NCBI GenBank assembly: GCA_963730185.1
Contig: CAVSQW010000015.1
Span: forward strand, 1 to 64,000
DNA length: 64,000 nucleotides
Origin: an uncultured Gemmatimonadales bacterium
GTDB lineage: Bacteria > Gemmatimonadota > Gemmatimonadetes > Gemmatimonadales > GWC2-71-9
Reading direction: 5' to 3'
Shown piece after piece: positions 18,066-59,918 of the stretch. The notes below the pieces were generated by a model that was given only the letters and a program-made list of their open reading frames with translations, had not been told where the DNA came from and did no database searches. Every line of letters starts with the position of its first letter. The stretch's first letter is position 1. Both the position numbers and the translations under genes were made by a program.

Positions 18066-18270
18066 GATAGTGAATTGGGAGTGGGGAGTAGGGGCTAGGG
18101 AGGGAGTAGGCACTTGGCACTAGGGGGACGGCCAACGCGTCGGGGGCTCGGCGCTCACCACTGCTCACGACTCACCACTACTCCCGCCCGACTCACAACT
18201 CACGACTCACTCCCTATTCCCCACTCCCGACTCACCAGTCCCTACGATATTCCCCACTCCCGACTCACTG
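18066..18270. repeat. G-rich arm / core / C-rich arm low-complexity element
   Basis: AGTGAATTGGGAGTGGGGAGTAGG is roughly complementary to two copies of TATTCCCCACTCCCGACTCAC; GACTCAC-type heptamers. Confidence 0.7.
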
Positions 18271-18666
18271 GTCCCTACCAACGTCCGTTCGGCCTCCGCG
18301 ATCCATTCCACCCACTCATCGGGCGCCGGGGTCGCCAGGAGGGCGGCTTCCCGGGCCAGGTCGATGGCGCGGCGGGCCAGGTGGTCGGCGGCGGACCGGT
18401 CGCCGGCGGCGCGCTCGATCGCGCTTCGGAGGGCCACCGTCTGGGCGTAGCTGTAGAGGCGGTTGGGGTCGCCGAGGAGCCGGGCGACGCTGGGCGGGTC
18501 GAGCTTCAGCACCAACTCGCCCAGGGAGACCGAGGATCTGGGCCTCCGCGTCCTTCAGGTACTGGCGGGCCAGATCCAGCGACAGGGTCGGATCCCGCCG
18601 GAGCAGCCGGGCGATCAGCACCGACAGCTGGGAGATCCACCGGAGGACGATGTCGCGCTGGAGCAA
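18207..18666 (-). CDS. Hypothetical helical protein, apparent frameshift near 18530
   Basis: ORFs 18316..18666 and 18207..18515 join (AQILG/SLGELVLKLD) by removing one base. Confidence 0.6.
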
Positions 18667-33479: not shown

Positions 33480-34904
33480 TCAAGGCGCGCGCGCTTCACG
33501 ACCCCGATCGAGCCGGGCGGCCAGCCGGCGGCCGCGGAGGGTGCGTCCGGCGAGGCGATCGACGGCGTGTTGGGCCTCGAGGTCTCCCGCGAACTCGATC
33601 AGCGTGAACGTCTCCTTCAGGTCCACCCGACCCACCGTCTCCCGAGGGACGTCGATCTCCGACGTCAGGAACGAGAGCCACTCGCCGAGCGTGACGCCGT
33701 CCTTGCGGCCGGCGTTGACCCAGACCCGGGCGCGCCGGCCGCTCGGCCCGGCCGCCGGATGCGCGGCGGCCTCGTGCCGGTGGCGCGCCTCGGTCCAGAG
33801 GCCGTGCAGGGCCGTGGCGACCTCGGTCGCCTGGTAGCGCTCGAAGAGCGGCGCCAAGGTGGCGAGGGCCGCCCGGTCGTCACCCGCGTCGATCCGGGCT
33901 CGCACCAGACGGCGCTCCTCCGCCATGGCGGCCTGCGCGGTGTCGAGGTGCCCGGGCAGACGCACGGGCTGCCGGTGGGCGATCCATCGGGCGGCGTAGG
34001 GCTCGCTCCCCGGCGGGAGCAGCACCACGGCCCCGCGGGCGGCGAGGTCGCGCAACGTCTCCGGCGGGGGCACGTCGAAGCAGGCGACGAGGGCGGCTTC
34101 CTCCGGCACCTGGGCAGTGACCGTCGGATCGATGCCGCGAGCCCGGAGGCTGGCCCGAATTTGGGGGTGATCGGAGGGCGACGCGGCCCAGACGGTGATC
34201 GTGTCGGCGTCCTCGAGGTCGACGAGATCGCCGAGGGCGCCCAGGCGGTCGTGCCACTGGACGGAGGCGACCCGGGCGCGGAACGCGGCCGGGGCCGTGA
34301 CCGTGCCGCCGACCAGCGGGCCTGCCACCACCGCGCGCCAGGCGTACCGTTCGGCCAGGGACGCGGTGCCTTCGGGATCGGTGGTGACGATGAGTCGGGG
34401 GACGGTCCGGGGCAGCTCGTTGAAGAACGGCACCAGCGGCTCGTCGGACGGCAGGAGCTCGGGCCAGATCAACACCAAGGCGCGGATCCGCTCGAGCGGG
34501 AGGCCACCTCGGCTCTGGAGCGCGGCGATGGTCTCCGGGGAGGCCACCAGTCCGGCGGTCTCGGGCGCGTGGGCCAGCCGACCGGCGCGGCCCGGCCCCG
34601 CGGCATAGGCGACGGCCCGGCCCAAGGCGGGCGCGAGTCGCGCGGCGAACGAGGCCCATGCCTCCGCGGCGCCGTCGGGTGCCATCAGGAGCGTGAAGCC
34701 GGGGGATGGGTCGGAGGAGGCCAAGGCGAGCGCGGCGGCGACGCCGGGCGCGGCGTACACGGGTGCGGGCGGCGCGGCCAGCACGGCGTGATTGCCCCGG
34801 AGCAGAGCCGGGACGACCGTTCGGGTGACGGGGTGGTCTTGCCCCATCCCGAGCGCTTCAAGCGCGCCCGACACGGCGGGCGGCAGCTTCGTTCCTTCCG
34901 ACAC
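33480..34904 (-). CDS. Degenerate DEAD-box helicase-like protein with C-terminal DbpA RNA-binding domain
   Basis: GAGGGA before GTG 34904; C-terminal [11 protein letters not shown]...[16 protein letters not shown]-terminus follows the DEAD-box layout without GKT or DEAD. Confidence 0.7.
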
Positions 34905-35007
34905 GGTTCCCTCGGTTGTCAAAAGAGCGGAGCGAAAGGAATAGCATTGACTTCGCCTGCGCAACCGGGAAGCTTTCGCCGCGATTCCCCCATCCGGATT
35001 GCTCGCC

Positions 35008-36231
35008 GTGACCAAAGTGCTTCGTCTCCCGGACCCGTTGTCCGCGAATCTGCAGCATCTCAAAGGCTCCGAAACCATCGCGATCAGCGCCGAGGCGCGA
35101 CGGCTCCGGGCTGAGGGGAAGGACGTCATCGACCTGAGCGTCGGCGAGCCGGACTTCGACACCCCGGCGCCGGTGGCGCAGGCCGGCGTTCAGGCGATTC
35201 AGAAGGGGTTCACCCGCTATCCGCCCAACGCCGGAACGGCCGATCTCCGGGCCGCGATCGCGAGCCACCTGAGCGCCCTGTCCGGCGGGCGGGCGGTCAA
35301 TCCGGACCAGGTGGTGGTCAGCTCCGGCTCCAAGCAGGCGCTCTTCAACGCCTGCTTCAGCCTCTTCGGTCCCAAGGACAAGGTGCTGATTCCCTCGCCC
35401 GCGTGGGTGTCGTATCCGCAGATCGTAGACTTGTCCCGGGCCACCCCGGTGATGGTGCCCGGCGATTCCGACTGGGGGCTCAAGGTCGGAGTGAAGGACC
35501 TCGAGCGGCACGCCGACAAGCTGGTGCGGGGGCTGATCCTTTGTTCGCCGTGCAATCCGACCGGCTCGGTCTACACCCTGACCGAGCTCAAGGCGATCGC
35601 CGACTGGGCCCGGGAGAACCACGTCTGGATCATCAGCGACGAGATCTACCGGCGGATCTACTACGGCTCCGGCGCCGCGCCCTCGATGTTCGACCTGCCG
35701 GACGAGTATCTGGAGCGGGCCGTGGTCATCTACGGGGCCAGCAAGGCGTACGCGATGACCGGCTGGCGGATCGGCTCGGCCTACGCGCCGCCCCACGTCG
35801 CCAAGGCGATGGCCAACCTCCAGTCGCATACCACCGCCGGCGCCAACCACCCGGCCCAGATCGCGGCCACCGCCGCATTCAGCGATCCCAAGGTGGAGCA
35901 GGACGTGGTCCGGATGACGGCCGCCTTCCGGCGCCGGCGTGACACGCTGGTCGAGAGTCTGCGGCGCGACGTCCCCGGGGTGGAGTTCGTCGAGCCGCAC
36001 GGCGCCTTCTACCTCTTCTTTCGGGTGGACGGGTTCGGTCCCAACCACGACACCACCGGCACCGCGTTCGCCGCCAAGCTGATCTCGGAGTTCGGGGTGG
36101 CGTCGGTCCCAGGCGGAGCCTTCGGCGACGACCGGTGGGTCCGGCTCAGCTACGCCGTCTCGGACAAGGAGCTCGACCGGGCGATCACCCGGATCCTCTC
36201 CTGCATCGAGGCGATCGGGCAGGGCCAGTGA
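35008..36231 (+). CDS. PLP-dependent class I aminotransferase (aspartate aminotransferase-like)
   Basis: LSVGEPDF, SPCNPTG, ISDEIY, SKAYAMTGWRIG; exact start uncertain. Confidence 0.95.
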   Translation: MTKVLRLPDPLSANLQHLKGSETIAISAEARRLRAEGKDVIDLSVGEPDFDTPAPVAQAGVQAIQKGFTRYPPNAGTADLRAAIASHLSALSGGRAVNPDQVVVSSGSKQALFNACFSLFGPKDKVLIPSPAWVSYPQIVDLSRATPVMVPGDSDWGLKVGVKDLERHADKLVRGLILCSPCNPTGSVYTLTELKAIADWARENHVWIISDEIYRRIYYGSGAAPSMFDLPDEYLERAVVIYGASKAYAMTGWRIGSAYAPPHVAKAMANLQSHTTAGANHPAQIAATAAFSDPKVEQDVVRMTAAFRRRRDTLVESLRRDVPGVEFVEPHGAFYLFFRVDGFGPNHDTTGTAFAAKLISEFGVASVPGGAFGDDRWVRLSYAVSDKELDRAITRILSCIEAIGQGQ

Positions 36232-36256: not shown

Positions 36257-37198
36257 GTGGTCGCCCGAGCCATGAGGCGGAGCCTCGTGATCGAGCGGAT
36301 CCGCCGCCGGCTCGGCGCCCGCGGCTACGCCACCGCCACGTCGCTCCCCTCGGCGGTCGACGGTCGGGCCGACGAATTTCGCCTGGTCCCCGCCCGGGTC
36401 CTGGACGACGCCCCCCTCTTGGCGCATCCGGTGGGCCCACCCACTGCCTGTTCCGAGCCGATCGCGTTTCTCGACGGGGTGCAGCGCCTGGAGGTCGTGG
36501 GCTTCTCCGAGGCGACGCCGATCGTGGTCGCCGAGATCGCGGCGGCGGTCCGGCTCCGGACCGGCCGCGAGTTCAAGACGGTGGTTCGGGACGAGCGCCG
36601 GCTGGTGGTGAGCGCGCCGGAGGTGCTCGACGAGCTGGGCGAGTCGGCCGCCGAGTGCGAGGCCTGGCCGCTCGACGTCGAGGACCCGGCGGTAGGGCAC
36701 CCGCTCCGGGCTCTGGAGCTGGCTCGGAAGCGGGTCGACCAGCGCCGGGCCACGCTGGAGCATCAGGTGGGCGACGCCTTTCGCCGCCGGTCCGATGCCT
36801 GGCTGGTGGTCGATGGCGTGCTCAACGACAGCGCCGCGTGGTCCGCCGACCCGCGGGCCATCGGGGTCTCGAAGAGCCACGCCACCCTCCCGTTCGAGGG
36901 TGACGACCTCTTGACCTATCTCCGCCTGCCGGCCGGCCACCGCTCGTCGGTGTTCGAGCCTGGGACCTGGCGGATCGGTCCGGTCCACGCCTGGGGCCTC
37001 CGCCTCTGGGAATGGGAGGGTCACGATCTGCTGCACGGCCTGGTCCGGATCGAGGCGGCCGTCTCCGCGGAGCCCGACGCCCGCGCGGACGAGATTTCCC
37101 GCTGGATCCTGGCGGAACGGGTGCCGCTGAGTCGCCCGGACCCGCGGTGGGATAGGCTGCTGTACGGCGTGGCGACGGTGGAAAGAGCGATCGGATAG
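36257..37198 (+). CDS. NurA-like nuclease (RNase H-like fold)
   Basis: Acidic motifs IAFLDG, TLEHQ, WLVVDG, IGVSKS and late GLVRIE; lies directly upstream of the HerA-like ATPase; alternative start at ATG 36272. Confidence 0.7.
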   Translation: MVARAMRRSLVIERIRRRLGARGYATATSLPSAVDGRADEFRLVPARVLDDAPLLAHPVGPPTACSEPIAFLDGVQRLEVVGFSEATPIVVAEIAAAVRLRTGREFKTVVRDERRLVVSAPEVLDELGESAAECEAWPLDVEDPAVGHPLRALELARKRVDQRRATLEHQVGDAFRRRSDAWLVVDGVLNDSAAWSADPRAIGVSKSHATLPFEGDDLLTYLRLPAGHRSSVFEPGTWRIGPVHAWGLRLWEWEGHDLLHGLVRIEAAVSAEPDARADEISRWILAERVPLSRPDPRWDRLLYGVATVERAIG

Positions 37199-37522
37199 GG
37201 AGTGGGGACTTGTGAGTGGTGAATAGGGAGTGAGTTAGGAGGGGAGTGGGCGATAGGGGTGGCCGGGTCCGGTGGCGGCTCCTGCTCGCCGATGCGACGC
37301 AGGGCTCGGTTCCCGGCGACTCGCGCGGGCCGCCCCTCGCCGCTTCCCCCCGCCGCTCCCTACCCAACTCCCTCCCCACTCACTACCCTACTCTCAACGC
37401 CTACTCACTCCCGTACTCCCAACCGCCTACTCACTCCCCTACTCCCAACCGCCTACTCACTCCCCTACTCCCAACCGCCTACTCACTCCCTATTCACCAC
37501 TCACAAGTCCCCACTCCCTATC
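37194..37522. mobile_element. MITE-like/palindromic element with perfect 42-bp terminal inverted repeats
   Basis: 37194-37235 GATAGGGAGTGGGGACTTGTGAGTGGTGAATAGGGAGTGAGT is the exact reverse complement of 37481-37522; no credible coding capacity; mobility not shown. Confidence 0.55.
37387..37489. repeat. 26-bp tandem repeat, about 4 units
   Basis: CCTACTCCCAACCGCCTACTCACTCC units head to tail; first unit degenerate. Confidence 0.85.
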
Positions 37523-37525
37523 ACC

Positions 37526-39443
37526 ATGGTCGGCCGCGTCGTAGCCACGGAGCTCAAACCAGCACCCCGCACCAGTTCCTCTTCTGGACGGCGCGGGACG
37601 CGGTGGTGGGGATCGGCTCGATCGTGCGGGTCGAGGGTGACGGGCGGGTCGTCTACGGGGTGGTGACCGACGCGTTCGCCTACAGCGATCTGGCGGGCGC
37701 CGATGGACGCCGTATTCGCCGCCGACGGCGACCCGGCGAGCGCCGTCGATCCCAGCCGGCGGAGCGAGATCCGCCTCTATCAGACGGCGGTGCTCCGCCA
37801 CGAGCCCGAGGAGCCGCTCCAGCCGGTGCCGCTGGGCGAGGTGTACCTCGCGACGGACGCCGACGTGGCCACGGCGCTCCGGATGGACGCCTTTCTCGGC
37901 GGGGAGAAGCCCACCGGGATGCCGGTCGGGCTCTACGCCGCGGGCGGGCTCGAGGCCCCGGTCTACCTCGACGCCGAGTTCCTGCTCGGCCCCGAGGCGG
38001 CGCACCTCAACATCAACGGCGTCTCCGGTCTCGCCACCAAGACCTCGCGCGATCGAGTTTTTCCTCGCGAGCATCTTCCAGACCTTCCCGGCCCACAAAG
38101 GGACGGGTCGCGGCGCTCTGCTTCAACGTGAAGGGGCCCGATCTGCTCTTCCTCGACCAACCGGGGCCGCTGTCGCAACGACGACCGCCACATGTACGAG
38201 CGGCTGGGTCTCGAGGCCAGGCCGTTCGAGCGGGTCCGCTACTTCGCGCCCTTCAAGCCCGACGGCGTCAACCTCAACACCCTCCGCACCCACCCCGAGC
38301 TGCCGCACCACGGAGCCGTTGGTGTGGGGGCTCCGCGAGGTGCTCGACTATCACCGAGGTGCTGCTCAACCGCGACGACGTCGATGCCAAGGCCGACGCC
38401 TTCATCGACTTTCTGGCGGAGCGGGTGATCGGCCGCGAGTTCCACGACGAGATCCTGGGCCAGACCTTCACGGTCCGGAGCTTCGCCGAGCTGGAGCAGT
38501 TCTTCCGGCGATCTTCAACTTTCTCGAGATGCAGACCCGGGGCGGAGAGATCTGGCGGACCCACCACATCGCCACCATCCGAAAGATCCGGAACCGCCTG
38601 GGCAACATCAGTACCCGGTCCAAGGGGCTGGTGACCGACGACGGCGAGGTGAACGACCTGCCCTGGGGCGCCTTCGAGGACCGGGCCACCTACGTGGTCG
38701 ACGTCGCCGGGCTCGATCCCCTGGCGCAGGACCTGGTGTTCGCCCGGGTGGTCTCCAAGCTCCGGGAGCACCTGGAACGGCGCGACCTGGGCGTGGAGCA
38801 CGTGGTGGTCTTTGTCGACGAGCTCAACAAGTACGCCCCCCAGGAGGGGCCGGACACCTACGTCCGGAAGATGCTCCTCGACCTCTCGGAGCGAGGCCGC
38901 TATCTCGGGCTGGTGCTCTTCTCGGCCCAGCAGTTCCGGTCGCAGGTGCACAAGCGGGTGATCGGCAACGCCGGCACCTCCGTCTTCGGCCGGCTGGATC
39001 CGGACGAATTGGCGACACCGGGTTATGCGATCCTGTCTCCGGCCATCAAGGCCAAGCTCGCCGCCCTCCCCAAGGGCGAGCTGATGCTCCGGCACCCCCA
39101 CTTTACCCAGCCGGTGTTCGTCCGCTTTCCCCGGCCGGCCGTGCTGGCCGGACGGGATGGGATCGACCGCTACCCGCCGGAGGCCGAGGTCCCGTTCGAG
39201 GACGCGGTGGTCCGGCGGCTCCGGGCCCTGGACCCGAAGATCCCGACCAACCGGCTCCGGGATCTGGTCTCCGGCCGGGCGCCCGACGACGTGGTGCGGG
39301 CCCTCCACGCCACCATCCGGACCCGCCCGGACGACGTGATGGCCTTCTTCGTGAAGTGCCTCGGCCGGGAGGTTCCGACCCGGACGGTCGCCCCGCGGGC
39401 CGGCGTCCCACCCCTCCGAATCACGGACGACCCCTACGCCTGA
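37526..39443 (+). CDS. herA: HerA/FtsK-family ATPase, with multiple frameshifts in the 5' half
   Basis: Stitched frames give an HAS-barrel-like N-terminus (MVGRVVATE...VYGVV), variant Walker A NINGVSGLATKTS, FNVKG, Walker B VVFVDELNKY and ERGRYLGLVLFSAQQ; about 8 single-base indels between 37560 and 38510. Confidence 0.8.
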
Positions 39444-39511
39444 GCTGAGTTGACGGCCGTTTCGGGCGCCCGGCCGCTTGCGGCCCCCCAATCGGCAAGC
39501 GATTCTCCAGC

Positions 39512-40693
39512 GTGCGCTTAGCCCATCTCGCCGACCTCCATCTCGGCTACCGCCAGTACCACCGTCAGACGGCCGCCGGGATCAACCAGCGGGAGGCCGA
39601 CGTCGCCCAGGCCTTCCGGGCCGCGATCGACGGCGTCATCGAGGCGCGCCCCGACCTCATCGTGGTCGCGGGCGACCTCTTTCATGCGGTCCGTCCGACC
39701 AACCAGGCGATCGTCTTCTGCTTCCGGCAGTTCCAGCGGATCCGGGCCGCGCTCCCCGACGTCCCGGTCGTGCTGGTCGCGGGGAACCATGACACGCCGC
39801 GGGCGACGGAGACCGGCTCGATCCTCCGACTGTTCGCGGAGCTGGGCTTCGACGTCGTCGCCGACGAGGCGAAACGTCTCCCCTTTCCCAAGCTCGATCT
39901 CTCGGTCCTGGCGGTGCCCCATAGCGCGCTCACGGCCGGCGAGCGACCCCGGCTCCGGGCCGAGGGGACGGCGCGCTACCAGGTGTTGGTGACCCACGGC
40001 GAGGTCGAGGGCCTCTTCCCGCTGGACCGGTGGTGGGCCGAGCCGGGTGGGGCGGTCCTCGACCCGGTCGAGCTGGCCGAGGGCGACTGGTCGTACGTGG
40101 CGCTGGGTCACTATCACGTGCAGAAGCAGGTCGGCGAGCGGGCGTGGTATGCCGGCGCCCTCGACTACGTCACCCCCAACCCCTGGGGCGAGCTGATCGA
40201 GGAGCGGAAGTCCAAGGTCAAGGGCAAGGGCTGGCTGCTGGTGGACCTCGACTCGGGCCGGGTGGAGTCGCACCCGGTCAAGACGCCCCGGAGCTTCCTC
40301 GACCTCAAGCCGATCGAAGCCCGCGACCTTCCTGCCTCGGAGCTGGATCAGGAGATCGCCGCCCGCCTCGGGAGTGTCCGGGGCGGGATCGCCGACAAGG
40401 TCGTCCGCTTGGTCGTGCACGACGTGGCCCGCCACCTGGTCCGGGAGCTCGATCATGCCGCGATCCGGGCCGCCAAGGCGAGCGCCCTTCACCTCCATCT
40501 CGACTTCCGCCGTCCGGAGGCGCATCGCACCGTCGGCGTGGGCGCCCCGGGGCCGCGGCAGACGCTGGTGGACGTGCTCCGGAGCTATCTCGCCAACCGG
40601 CCGCTCCCGGAACGGGTGGATCGCGAGCGGTTCGTGCGCGAAGGCGTGGCCCTGCTCGAAGCCGCCACCGCGGACGTCGAGGGGACGGCCTGA
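39512..40693 (+). CDS. sbcD: Mre11/SbcD family nuclease
   Basis: DLHLG, AGDLF, GNHD, THG, ALGHYH phosphoesterase motifs. Confidence 0.92.
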   Translation: MRLAHLADLHLGYRQYHRQTAAGINQREADVAQAFRAAIDGVIEARPDLIVVAGDLFHAVRPTNQAIVFCFRQFQRIRAALPDVPVVLVAGNHDTPRATETGSILRLFAELGFDVVADEAKRLPFPKLDLSVLAVPHSALTAGERPRLRAEGTARYQVLVTHGEVEGLFPLDRWWAEPGGAVLDPVELAEGDWSYVALGHYHVQKQVGERAWYAGALDYVTPNPWGELIEERKSKVKGKGWLLVDLDSGRVESHPVKTPRSFLDLKPIEARDLPASELDQEIAARLGSVRGGIADKVVRLVVHDVARHLVRELDHAAIRAAKASALHLHLDFRRPEAHRTVGVGAPGPRQTLVDVLRSYLANRPLPERVDRERFVREGVALLEAATADVEGTA

Positions 40694-43116
40694 TGCTGAT
40701 CCGCCGGGTTCGGCTGCTCAACTTCCGCCAGCACGCCGACACGGTGCTGGAGCTGGCGGAGGGCCTCACCGGTATCGTGGGGCCCAACGGGGCGGGGAAG
40801 ACCACCCTGCTCGAGGCGATCGCCTGGGCGATGTACGGCACCCCGGCGGCCCGGGGGACCCGCGACACGATCCGCCGTCGCTCGGCGCCGCCCCGCTCAC
40901 GGGTGGAAGTGGAGCTCGAGTTCCAGCTCGGCCCGCACCGCTACCGCGTGGTCCGGTCGCTCCAGTCGGCGGCGCTCTATCAGGACGACGAGCCGGCCGC
41001 GATCGCGAACAGTCCGGGGGCGGTGACCGAGAAGGTCACCCGGATCCTCCGGATGACCCGCGAGGAGTTCTTCAACACCTACTTCACCGGGCAGAAGGAG
41101 CTGGCCATCATGGCGTCGATGTCGGCGCCGGATCGAGCCCGGTTCCTGAGCCGGGTGTTGGGGTACGATCGGTTGGCGGCGGCCCAGGTCCGTCTCAAGG
41201 AAGCTCGTTCCGCCCTCCGGGCCTCGCTCCAGACGGCGGAGCACGGGCTGATCGACGCCGCGTCGCTGGCGACCGAGGAGCGTGAGGCCGACGCCCGGCT
41301 GGCCACCGCCGGCACGGCGTTGGAGCAGAGCCGGGCGCATGCCGCCGCCGGCGCCGAGGCCTTCCAGACCCTGGTGCCGGTCTGGGAGTCGCTTCAGCGC
41401 CGCCGGGAAGAGGTCCTCTCGGTCGAGACCGACCTCAAGGTCGCCGCCCACCAGGCCGACGAAGCCCGCCGTACCTTCGAGGGCATGGACCGGGAGTTGG
41501 CCGAATCGCTCGCCGCCAAGACCAAGCGGGACGCTCTCTTGCCGGCGCTGGCCGACTGGGAGCCGCTGGTCAAGGAGCGCGATGCCCTGGACGCGGACGC
41601 CCAGGCCTTCTCGGGCCGGCGGGCCCTCGAGGCCCGAGTCGGCGAGGTCAAGGCTGCCCTGACCGCGGCCGCGGCCCGCCTGGAACGGCTCCCCCGGTCG
41701 AACCGGGTAGACATAACCCGTAGCGATCTGGCCACGGCCCGGGAGACGGCGGCCCGGGCGGTGTTGGCGGTGGAAGAGCGCCACACGGTCTGGGTCCGCG
41801 ACAAGCAGGACGCGGAGACCCAGCGGAAGAACCTGCTCCAGCAGCACGAGGACGTCGCCAAGCAGCTGGAGCGCCTCCGGGCCACCGGCCCCACCGTGGT
41901 CTGTCCCACCTGCGGCAAGCCCCTCGGCAAAGAGTACGAGGCCGTCCTCGACGACCTTCAGACCCGGCACGACGACATCCTGTTCCAGGGCAAGTTCTAT
42001 CGCCAGCGGATCGACCAGCTTACCCCGGAGCCGCCCGAGCTCAAGCAGGCCCGGGCGGCCGCGGAGCAGGACGAGAAGCGCGTCGCCGAGCTGACCCGCA
42101 CCCTGGCCCAGGTCGAGGCGGCGGTGGCCGAGCGGGCCGGGGTCGAGCGGGAGCGGGCGCAGCTGGCCGAGCGCCTGGCCGACCTGGAACGGGAGCTGGC
42201 CGCCGTGCCGGGGCGGTACGACGAGGAGCGCCACCGGCAGGTGCGGGCCCGGCTGGCCCAGCTGGAGCCGCTCCGGGAGCAGGTGACCCGGCTGACCGTG
42301 GCCGCCGACCGGGGCGCCCAGTTGATGCCTCGGGCGGCCGAGGCCGAGCAGGTGCTCTCCAAGGCCGAGGCCAGGGTGATCGAGCTCCGCCACCGGTTGC
42401 AGGAGTTCGGCTGGTCGAGCGAGACCTTCGAGCAGACCCGCACGGCCTATCAGCGGGCCGACCAGGAGCGGCAGGTCGCCGAGGTGCGCCGGGTCCGGGC
42501 CGAGTCCGAGCTGGCCGCCGCCAACGAGCATCGGGGGGCGGTCGCCCGGCGACGGGCCGAGCGGCAGACCCGGCTCCGGGAGGTGGAGCGGCTGGGGAGC
42601 GAGGTGGCCCTGAACCAGGAGCTGGACCGGGCCTTCACCGATCTCCGCGAGGAGCTCAACGCGACCATCCGGCCCGACCTGTCCGACTCGGCCTCGGCCT
42701 TGCTCCGGGATCTGTCGGGAGGGCGGTATGCCGACCTCGAGCTGGACGAGAACTACATGCCGACCATCGTGGACGACGGCGAACCCAAGACCGTGATCTC
42801 CGGCGGCGAGGAAGACGTCGCCAACCTGGCCCTCCGGCTGGCCATCAGCCAGATGATCGCCGACCGGGCCGGCCAGCCGTTCTCGCTCCTGGTGCTCGAC
42901 GAGATCTTCGGCTCGCTCGACGAGGAGCGGCGGATGGCGGTCCTGGACCTGCTCCGGAGTCTGGCCGACCGGTTCCCGCAGGTCATCCTCATCACCCACA
43001 TCGAATCGGTTCGCGACGGCTTCGACCGGGTGATCCGGATCGCGTACGACGTGGAGCGGGGCCTCGCGACCGCGCGCGAGGAACGCCTGGGTGAGGTGCC
43101 TCATGTGGCGGCGTGA
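40693..43116 (+). CDS. sbcC: Rad50/SbcC family SMC-like ATPase
   Basis: TGATG coupling; GPNGAGKTT, Q-loop FTGQ, zinc hook CPTC, ISGGE, LVLDEIFGSLD, ITH. Confidence 0.93.
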   Translation: MLIRRVRLLNFRQHADTVLELAEGLTGIVGPNGAGKTTLLEAIAWAMYGTPAARGTRDTIRRRSAPPRSRVEVELEFQLGPHRYRVVRSLQSAALYQDDEPAAIANSPGAVTEKVTRILRMTREEFFNTYFTGQKELAIMASMSAPDRARFLSRVLGYDRLAAAQVRLKEARSALRASLQTAEHGLIDAASLATEEREADARLATAGTALEQSRAHAAAGAEAFQTLVPVWESLQRRREEVLSVETDLKVAAHQADEARRTFEGMDRELAESLAAKTKRDALLPALADWEPLVKERDALDADAQAFSGRRALEARVGEVKAALTAAAARLERLPRSNRVDITRSDLATARETAARAVLAVEERHTVWVRDKQDAETQRKNLLQQHEDVAKQLERLRATGPTVVCPTCGKPLGKEYEAVLDDLQTRHDDILFQGKFYRQRIDQLTPEPPELKQARAAAEQDEKRVAELTRTLAQVEAAVAERAGVERERAQLAERLADLERELAAVPGRYDEERHRQVRARLAQLEPLREQVTRLTVAADRGAQLMPRAAEAEQVLSKAEARVIELRHRLQEFGWSSETFEQTRTAYQRADQERQVAEVRRVRAESELAAANEHRGAVARRRAERQTRLREVERLGSEVALNQELDRAFTDLREELNATIRPDLSDSASALLRDLSGGRYADLELDENYMPTIVDDGEPKTVISGGEEDVANLALRLAISQMIADRAGQPFSLLVLDEIFGSLDEERRMAVLDLLRSLADRFPQVILITHIESVRDGFDRVIRIAYDVERGLATAREERLGEVPHVAA

Positions 43117-44053
43117 AGACGAGCTGATCGGCCCCGACCGGGCGACGCCCGACGACATCGAGGCGATCAACCGGGTCTTTTCCGACGCGTTCACCGAGCG
43201 CTATCACCGCGACGGGATGAACGGCGTCCGGGTGCCCCTCCTGAGCCCGGCCATCTGGCGCTTCGCGATCGCGACCGCGGCCGACGGCGCCCTGGTCTGG
43301 CGCGACCGGTCCAGCACGATCGCCGCCTTCAACATGGTCCACGTGTCGGGCGCCGAGGGGTGGATGGGACCGCTGGCGGTCCGGCCGGATTGCCAGGGGC
43401 GCGGCGTCGGACGAACGATCGTCACCGTCGGGTCGGCCCTGCTCCGGGAGCGGGGCTGCCGGGTCATCGGCCTCGAGACCATGCCCCGGACGATCGAGAA
43501 CATCGGATTCTACAGCACCCTCGGCTTCCGGCCGGGGTTCCTGACCATCTCGATGGTGAACGAGGCGATTCGCCGGGGCGATCGCCTCCCGCTCGCTTCG
43601 GAAAGCCGCTCGGTCGACTGGCTCGGCGCCTGCACCGGACTCACCACTCGCCTGGCGCCGGGGCTCGCCTTCCAACGCGAGATCGCCCTGACGTTGGAAC
43701 AGACCCTGGGTGACGTGTCGCTGGTCTGGCGGGACGGCGCGTTGGCGGGGTATGCCCTCTGGCATTCGGCGGCGCTGGCCGCGGGGCGCCCGGCCGACGA
43801 GCTCCGGGTCCTCAAGCTATCGGCCCTCGATCCGGCCGCGTTCCGGTCGTTGGTGGAGGGGCTGCTGACCGAGGCCCGGGCCCGGTCGCTCCGGCGGGTG
43901 GCGATTCGCTGCCAGACCGCGCATCGGGCGGCGTTCGCCGAGCTGCTGGCGCTCGGTTTCCGGGTTCACTGGACCGATCTCCGAATGACGCTGGAGGGAT
44001 TCGACGAAGCGCCGACGCCGGCGGGCGTCGTGTTTTCGAACTGGGAAATTTGA
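43103..44053 (+). CDS. GNAT family N-acetyltransferase
   Basis: GAGG before ATG 43103, overlapping the end of sbcC; LAVRPDCQGRGVG and NIGFYSTLGF. Confidence 0.88.
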   Translation: MWRREDELIGPDRATPDDIEAINRVFSDAFTERYHRDGMNGVRVPLLSPAIWRFAIATAADGALVWRDRSSTIAAFNMVHVSGAEGWMGPLAVRPDCQGRGVGRTIVTVGSALLRERGCRVIGLETMPRTIENIGFYSTLGFRPGFLTISMVNEAIRRGDRLPLASESRSVDWLGACTGLTTRLAPGLAFQREIALTLEQTLGDVSLVWRDGALAGYALWHSAALAAGRPADELRVLKLSALDPAAFRSLVEGLLTEARARSLRRVAIRCQTAHRAAFAELLALGFRVHWTDLRMTLEGFDEAPTPAGVVFSNWEI

Positions 44054-46259: not shown

Positions 46260-46335
46260 CCCGACCCCTCCCACCCCGAGTCCCTACTCCCAACTCCCTC
46301 CCTACTCCCAACTCCCCATTCCCTAGTCCCTATCC
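46260..46335. repeat. C-rich low-complexity heptamer-like tract between convergent genes
   Basis: TCCCTAC/TCCCAAC/TCCCCAT/TCCCTAG units. Confidence 0.65.
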
Positions 46336-59744: not shown

Positions 59745-59918
59745 AGGGAAAGGGGGGAGGGTAGGGATTAGGGAGGGAGTAGGGAGTAGGGTAGGGGGTA
59801 GCGAGTAGTCGCCCCCGCTGCCAACCGCTCGTTCCTGATCCCTGCCACTCCCTGGGCCTCCTCACGCCCTCGTCGCTCCCTGCTCCCTACTCCCACCCTA
59901 CTCACGACTCCCTCGCTA
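59745..59918. repeat. G-rich arm / core / C-rich arm element
   Basis: GGGAGTAGGGAG in the left arm is complementary to CTCCCTACTCCC in the right arm; many G3 runs. Confidence 0.65.

Follow-up and report, generated by a model that had tools for sequence, protein, structure and literature searches.

Clusters of genes for HerA, Mre11, Rad50 and NurA are best known from thermophilic archaea (Sulfolobales, Thermococcales), where the order is herA-mre11-rad50-nurA (PMC13748450, PMC2288612). Among bacteria, structures have been solved for the NurA-HerA pair of Deinococcus radiodurans (7F6D, 7WRW, 7WRX; PMC9960219), and a four-gene nurA-hepA-sbcD-sbcC cluster has been described for Oceanithermus profundus (PMC5448004). 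Here these systems are compared with a locus in a window of 64,000 nucleotides (positions 1-64,000 of contig CAVSQW010000015.1) from the genome of an uncultured Gemmatimonadales bacterium (5.27 Mb, 17 contigs, 81.8% complete). The locus comprises five plus-strand genes at 36257-44053, i.e. nurA, herA, mre11, rad50 and a gene for a tandem-GNAT acetyltransferase (Table 1). An initial annotation had reported four co-oriented genes there, which the gene calls bear out, but it did not mention the GNAT gene at the end of the interval.

Relationship of the four proteins to described systems

As a single protein the nurA product has no Pfam (including PF09376) or NCBIfam match, and PF09376 is matched by 11 of 100 homologs (E up to 0.01). 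A profile built from 100 of 428 homologs matches Thermotoga NurA (TM1739; 1ZUP, E 1.4e-8) and Deinococcus NurA (7F6D, E 1.6e-8), and a Foldseek search with the AF2 model (pLDDT 94.3) returns 7F6D_G (E 3.7e-11), 1ZUP (2.7e-10) and Sulfolobus NurA 2YGK (1.2e-6), i.e. both methods rank the Deinococcus and Thermotoga structures above that from Sulfolobus. The acidic motifs proposed in the initial annotation are present as four putative catalytic residues, D73, E168, D186 and E309, kept in 93, 100, 98 and 96 of 100 homologs, respectively. In the profile alignment the first three align with D49, E140 and D157 of TmNurA, and E309 probably corresponds, by its position, to E280; these four TmNurA residues are catalytic (PMC3300031). 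The modelled product has the NurA fold, as had been proposed, and is predicted by analogy to be a Mn-dependent dimeric nuclease working in a 2:6 complex with HerA. Homolog starts make ATG 36272 a likelier start than GTG 36257.

The HerA of the window, searched as a single sequence, gave nothing in Pfam/NCBIfam past a weak HAS-barrel match (PF09378, E 5.9e-6). With the HerA of an intact relative, the sole PDB sequence match is Deinococcus HerA (7F6D, E 4.6e-42), and no archaeal HerA is matched in the PDB at E up to 1. The HerA/FtsK ATPase motifs are kept in 31-34 of 34 relatives. The protein carries about 85 extra C-terminal residues, with a DPY-like tail in 29 of the 34 relatives; an Atlas search with this region gave a lead of 0.76 at most.

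The motifs and identity that the initial annotation had assigned to HerA are confirmed, but an intact open reading frame is not seen, herA being split across three frames in the assembly. Frameshift-aware alignment to two intact same-genus HerA proteins places eight single-base shifts, overlooked earlier, at about 37563-38510; the reconstructed frame has zero in-frame stops and is 83-84% identical to the two intact proteins. The gene is open as one frame in 18/18 relatives read. Near-strain short-read contigs, among the matches listed, have compensating indels at about 38307, 38350 and 38506, and one such contig spans 960 bp with 21 substitutions. Since relatives are intact and the near-strain contigs lack three of the shifts, these are probably assembly or sequencing errors, three of the eight sites having been checked directly.

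The Mre11/SbcD and Rad50/SbcC motifs, including the CPTC zinc hook, are as first annotated. The mre11 product has all five phosphoesterase motifs (PF00149, E 3e-13); that of rad50 is a split ABC ATPase with a long coiled coil, in which Walker A, the ISGGE signature, Walker B/D-loop, a His switch and the mid-protein CPTC hook are all seen. The hook is present in 38 of 39 Rad50 relatives, the sole miss being cut by a contig end, and the motifs of HerA, Mre11 and Rad50 persist almost throughout the 34-39 relatives compared. The proposed coupling of the two genes by TGATG is seen at 40690-40695.

Archaeal Mre11 and Rad50 models score best with these proteins, yet far below their cut-offs, and the sbcC and sbcD scores are below cut-off too: Rad50 gives 188 bits with PRK03918 versus 93.5 with sbcC (TIGR00618, cut-off 478.5), and Mre11 gives 83 bits with Mre11_Sulfo versus 71.5 with sbcD (TIGR00619, cut-off 77.65). 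By contrast, the canonical SbcCD of a Longimicrobiales-like family outside the order (f7) scores 243 bits with sbcC and 185 bits with sbcD. PDB chains named Rad50/Mre11 likewise rank far above those named SbcC/SbcD for the window proteins; the top matches are, we assume, archaeal. Because short 'SMC family ATPase' genes like this rad50 also occur in Arcobacter and Pontibacillus records, 'archaeal-like' need not mean archaeal transfer. A search of plasmid records for relatives to compare with archaea returned bacterial relatives only, and window-type queries found no second SbcCD, HerA or NurA in the source genome.

Judged by these comparisons, the cluster is a mosaic of Deinococcus/Thermotoga-type NurA-HerA and archaeal-like Mre11-Rad50. 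The 'archaeal-type' label of the initial annotation is thus apt in part at most: Mre11 and Rad50 score closer to archaeal models than to SbcCD, but NurA and HerA do not belong to the archaeal clade. As in the archaeal operon, the four families are clustered; the gene order differs, however, nurA and herA are dispensable here, NurA and HerA are of bacterial type, and NurA carries Glu where the archaeal protein has a catalytic His. The operon would work like the archaeal set, but its NurA/HerA half is no member of it by descent.

In the structure search NurA comes closest to the NurA-HerA complex of Deinococcus radiodurans, which is also the one solved structure that HerA matches by sequence; shared with it are the nurA-herA tandem and an insert in the HAS domain at the NurA-docking position. 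Here, by contrast, nurA and herA stand in one cluster with mre11-rad50-GNAT, HerA has the additional C-terminal region, and NurA identity is low (13% in the structural comparison). The Oceanithermus cluster is bacterial and has the same four genes in the same order, a likeness taken from the published gene order; it comes from a single genome and is read in PMC5448004 as late SbcCD recruitment, whereas here the arrangement is fixed across an order. Clusters in Actinomycetota and Longimicrobiales share the bacterial NurA/HerA superclade, with HerA about 30-32% identical, but contain canonical SbcC/SbcD, mostly in the order herA-sbcD-sbcC-nurA; in f7 the aligned HerA proteins lack the C-terminal extension and the loci have no match to this GNAT.

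A GTDB scan queried with a divergent f7 HerA, and so biased to the query clade, gave 583 confirmed stretches, of which the best 80 were followed; most of these are from Actinomycetota. The genes herA, sbcD, sbcC and nurA are carried by 63 of the 80, and by 53 of the 54 with full flanks. In the f7 genomes there are two separate clusters of the four genes, both with SbcCD of the canonical kind, one ordered herA-sbcD-sbcC-nurA (L053:7777-14535, L055, L058) and the other nurA-herA-sbcD-sbcC (L054:7860-15021, L057). The HerA of the former is 60-70% identical to actinobacterial HerA, which suggests that this cluster was transferred.

With the Oceanithermus cluster in print and herA-sbcD-sbcC-nurA in 63/80 GTDB loci, the description of the locus as a candidate undescribed system has to be given up. 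Its parts and arrangement were already known, and the surprise is moderate. A literature search, whose reach did not extend to the 2004 herA/nurA literature, found no paper on this operon in Gemmatimonadota. Iyer et al. (2004) are said to have surveyed bacterial herA/nurA neighbourhoods, so an earlier precedent is possible.

Conserved gene order and nested loss of nurA and herA

Conservation was assessed in an even draw of 150 genomes of the phylum, each at least 90% complete, 107 of them from the order Gemmatimonadales (families f1, 74 genomes; f2, 31; f3, 2). The order nurA>herA>mre11, with gaps <6 kb, is kept in 77 of the 83 phylum genomes with strong matches to all three (families f1, f2, f4 and f5), and the three genes are split over contigs in the remaining six. 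Among 20 relatives' loci, 18 were readable past herA and 16 had all four genes in order. Gene order, for which the initial annotation had proposed a check across relatives, is thus conserved. A 2026 review describes bacterial nurA as without such synteny (PMC13748450), a statement contradicted by the 77/83 Gemmatimonadota genomes together with the 53/54 mostly actinobacterial loci with full flanks.

The position of the locus is the same in families f1-f3, i.e. after an aminotransferase gene and before GNAT-queD-folE, and a Rad50 tree (a quick version of 38 rows picked to include losses, the truncated L037 being left out) largely follows families. The operon is vertically inherited at a housekeeping locus.

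Within the order, mre11 is present in 106/107 genomes, herA in 97/107 and nurA in 83/107. In fifteen genomes herA occurs without nurA; reading of the 15 loci showed that nurA is gone from every one and herA-mre11-rad50 retained, so that the possibility of search misses was rejected; ten genomes lack both herA and nurA (nine loci read). The tree forces at least four changes for nurA loss (by its starred branches) and five for herA loss.

The HAS insert of HerA aligns with Deinococcus residues D78/E80/D81, mutation of which abolishes NurA binding (PMC9960219). The motif is kept in 19/19 HerA proteins from nurA-containing genomes and in 7/15 from nurA-less genomes, i.e. the predicted NurA-docking loop is lost in none of the former and eight of the latter, while the ATPase motifs stay; these counts overstate the evidence, since kin are not independent and one genus accounts for 10 of the 19. 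Because the loop decays only in nurA-less genomes, the sequences support the predicted docking of NurA on HerA in these bacteria, and a role for HerA that would not require NurA. The latter fits reports that Rad50, Mre11 and HerA of Sulfolobus co-precipitate without NurA (PMC2288612), that a hepA mutant of Thermus HB27 is UV-sensitive although nurA is truncated there (PMC5448004), and that Deinococcus HerA stimulates RecJ (PMC4663267).

The explanation that we hold to be somewhat better than an even bet is that the locus is a modular DNA-end-processing operon, with Mre11-Rad50 as fixed core, HerA as near-fixed partner and NurA as optional head. By extension from work with Deinococcus, Pyrococcus and Sulfolobus, Mre11-Rad50 would bind and clean a broken or blocked end, a HerA hexamer would thread the duplex with ATP, and a NurA dimer docked on the HerA HAS barrels would trim the 5' strand, leaving a 3' tail for RecA. 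The operon would probably act beside RecJ/RecQ and not as sole resector, and in nurA-less lineages HerA would go on working with Mre11-Rad50 or RecJ.

Several observations weigh against this modular reading. Apart from the dependence among kin and the seven nurA-less HerA proteins that retain the docking loop, one genome (G127) keeps nurA without herA, and two genomes of the same genus (L013, L017) have herA without mre11 nearby. With three of the eight herA frameshifts checked directly, the gene could be broken in this strain. Two published findings also count against a central role in resection. Deinococcus cells that lack both nurA and herA are about 10-fold more resistant to UV and mitomycin C (PMC9960219), and the HerA-NurA of Thermococcus cleaves both strands, its authors doubting that it takes part in resection (PMC12977600).

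It may be instead that HerA is mainly a motor for DNA transport or segregation (transformation, cell-to-cell transfer), adjacent to mre11-rad50 for shared expression only. In Thermus, mutation of hepA abolishes competence and the donation of DNA (PMC5448004). Conservation among the four genes is highest for herA, which outlives nurA, and passengers often stand between herA and mre11, which are directly adjacent in 27/77 only. However, herA and mre11 are linked in 96/98 genomes, and Actinomycetota and f7 show the four-gene linkage again with SbcCD of another clade, which suggests selection for the pairing; we consider the transport role very unlikely.

The locus and its neighbourhood

Table 1. 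Coordinates of the cluster features in the window
Feature	Position	Strand	Description
nurA	36257..37198	+	NurA nuclease of bacterial type with an RNase H-like fold; 313 aa if read from GTG
palindromic REP/MITE-like element	37194..37522	none	inverted arms, fold z -9.1
herA	37526..39443	+	N-terminal HAS barrel + HerA/FtsK ATPase, Deinococcus type; 8 single-base frameshifts
mre11 (SbcD homolog)	39512..40693	+	393 aa; five phosphoesterase motifs
rad50 (SbcC homolog)	40693..43116	+	807 aa; central CPTC zinc hook
tandem-GNAT acetyltransferase	43103..44053	+	ATG 43103, SD-like motif upstream; alternative GTG 43091

The start of the GNAT gene overlaps the 3' end (stop) of rad50. GNAT follows rad50 in 35/35 Gemmatimonadales loci with room, and in 5/5 more, but in 0/2 loci outside the order; it is kept after rad50 even where herA and nurA are missing. 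Its solved relatives are generic acetyltransferases.

In relatives nurA and herA abut (median gap 54 bp), whereas here they are separated by a 329-bp element, in which 42-bp perfect inverted arms (37194-37235 and 37481-37522) flank a 26-bp tandem array. BLAST gave 18 matches to the arm in the genome, ten of at least 30 nt, two of which are the element's own arms, and a near-strain contig has a variant. The element is a REP/MITE-like passenger and no part of the machine. Other intergenic spaces, including 18208-18278, 46281-46332 and 59758-59912, have CT-rich/GA-rich palindromic and tandem repeats.

The neighbours, assigned by Pfam match or by motif, are housekeeping genes (aminotransferase, thymidine kinase, CoaE, GcvH, QueD, FolE). 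GC content is uniform over the nurA-GNAT region, and a promoter/terminator scan within the cluster gave nothing informative. Divergent from the aminotransferase gene, at 33480-35162 on the minus strand, is a conserved gene for a protein of about 490-560 aa with a C-terminal DbpA RNA-binding domain; a Pfam search found no helicase match, and the product is possibly a degenerate DEAD-box-like protein.

In many Gemmatimonadales a 166-aa gene without an NCBIfam family (L035:4671-5171) lies between the aminotransferase gene and nurA/herA; it has been lost in the genus of the window. This gene was rejected as a new nuclease replacing NurA, as it is also present in loci with nurA. Between herA and mre11 there is often a gene for a protein of about 280-300 aa with a signal-peptide-like start (L023:9998-10852, L025, L026, L047, L063, L064); other passengers there are presumably AMP-ligase-like and channel-like. 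In G127 (contig 46, 8000-20000), nurA and mre11 are separated by 4.4 kb of other DNA.

Elsewhere in the source genome, a second recQ (contig 6, 94315-96157) is split in two, suggestive of additional indel errors in the assembly. On contig 9 (7773-9712) the C-terminal portion of an L069 open reading frame matches a gene that is broken into several pieces in different frames, and which we take to be WYL-like from its motif.

Break resection and foreign DNA

The distribution of other resection routes bears on how much of break repair the operon could carry. The nuclease domain of AddAB/AdnAB/RecB (PF12705) is found in 43/43 sampled genomes outside the order, but within it in 18/74 genomes of f1, 15/31 of f2 and 1/2 of f3; RecC occurs in 0/74 of f1 and 5/31 of f2. 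PF12705 and RecC searches, the check suggested in the initial annotation, found neither AddAB nor RecBCD in the source genome, which is 81.8% complete; a match there to an L069 open reading frame was rejected as AddA because only the C-terminal two thirds, presumably WYL-like, are covered. Together with the restriction of this NurA/HerA clade to f1, f2, f4 and f5, these data could be taken to mean that Gemmatimonadales resect breaks mainly with the four proteins, which would have replaced AddAB when the order arose. We regard this as unlikely. With strong AddAB-like pairs or RecC classified by hand, 8/22 nurA-less genomes have AddAB/RecBCD versus 16/83 with nurA (p=0.15), so that strict complementarity is rejected, and 14 of the 22 show neither system. 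The source genome, moreover, has RecJ, RecQ and Ku, and f7 has AddAB plus its own four-gene cluster. AddAB loss coincides with the order but is unmatched genome by genome. The complete four-part resector envisaged in the initial annotation is not sustained by these losses of nurA, repeated and often without AddAB/RecBCD, nor by the presence of RecJ, RecQ and Ku.

A bolder reading is a hybrid break-repair machine, in which a HerA motor bearing a C-terminal domain and DPY tail peculiar to the lineage would couple directly to archaeal-like Mre11-Rad50 and act with NurA or without it. This machine would have taken over while the ancestor of the order was losing AddAB, and the GNAT protein would regulate it by acetylation. 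We consider this quite unlikely; if it were true, the nurA-less lineages would be natural experiments isolating a NurA-independent HerA-Mre11-Rad50 activity.

The degradation of both strands by Thermococcus HerA-NurA, for which an antiviral role has been proposed (PMC12977600), raises another possibility, that NurA-HerA, though housed in a repair operon, serves to degrade linear DNA entering the cell from phages or plasmids. A defence role for bacterial NurA-HerA is asserted in the 2026 review (PMC13748450), Foldseek relates the fold of the NurA model to that of a TdpAB chain (8WFD, E 1.4e-4), and nurA, like defence genes, is often lost. The locus, however, is single-copy and fixed among housekeeping genes, with a vertical Rad50 tree and uniform GC content, and HerA relatives are found on only six plasmid records, at 26-35% identity. 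PADLOC returned no system match for NurA or Mre11, and for HerA only weak matches to generic ATPase models (E 1e-7 to 7e-6); a place among the HerA-based defence systems (Sir2-HerA, DUF4297-HerA, TdpAB), marked by a cognate effector, a PADLOC model match and a mobile or island context, is not supported, and the locus is fixed. We judge foreign-DNA degradation to be quite unlikely as the role of NurA-HerA. The argument of the initial annotation, that the housekeeping context favours core repair over a defence island, therefore stands, given the fixed locus, the vertical Rad50 tree and the lack of a PADLOC match for NurA and Mre11.

Among bacterial genomes the four-gene module is frequent and poorly annotated. 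The nested losses, together with the matching decay of the docking loop, allow tests of whether HerA can act with Mre11-Rad50 when NurA is missing and of whether NurA-HerA resects breaks or destroys foreign DNA. Of the explanations considered, the modular operon is the preferred one.

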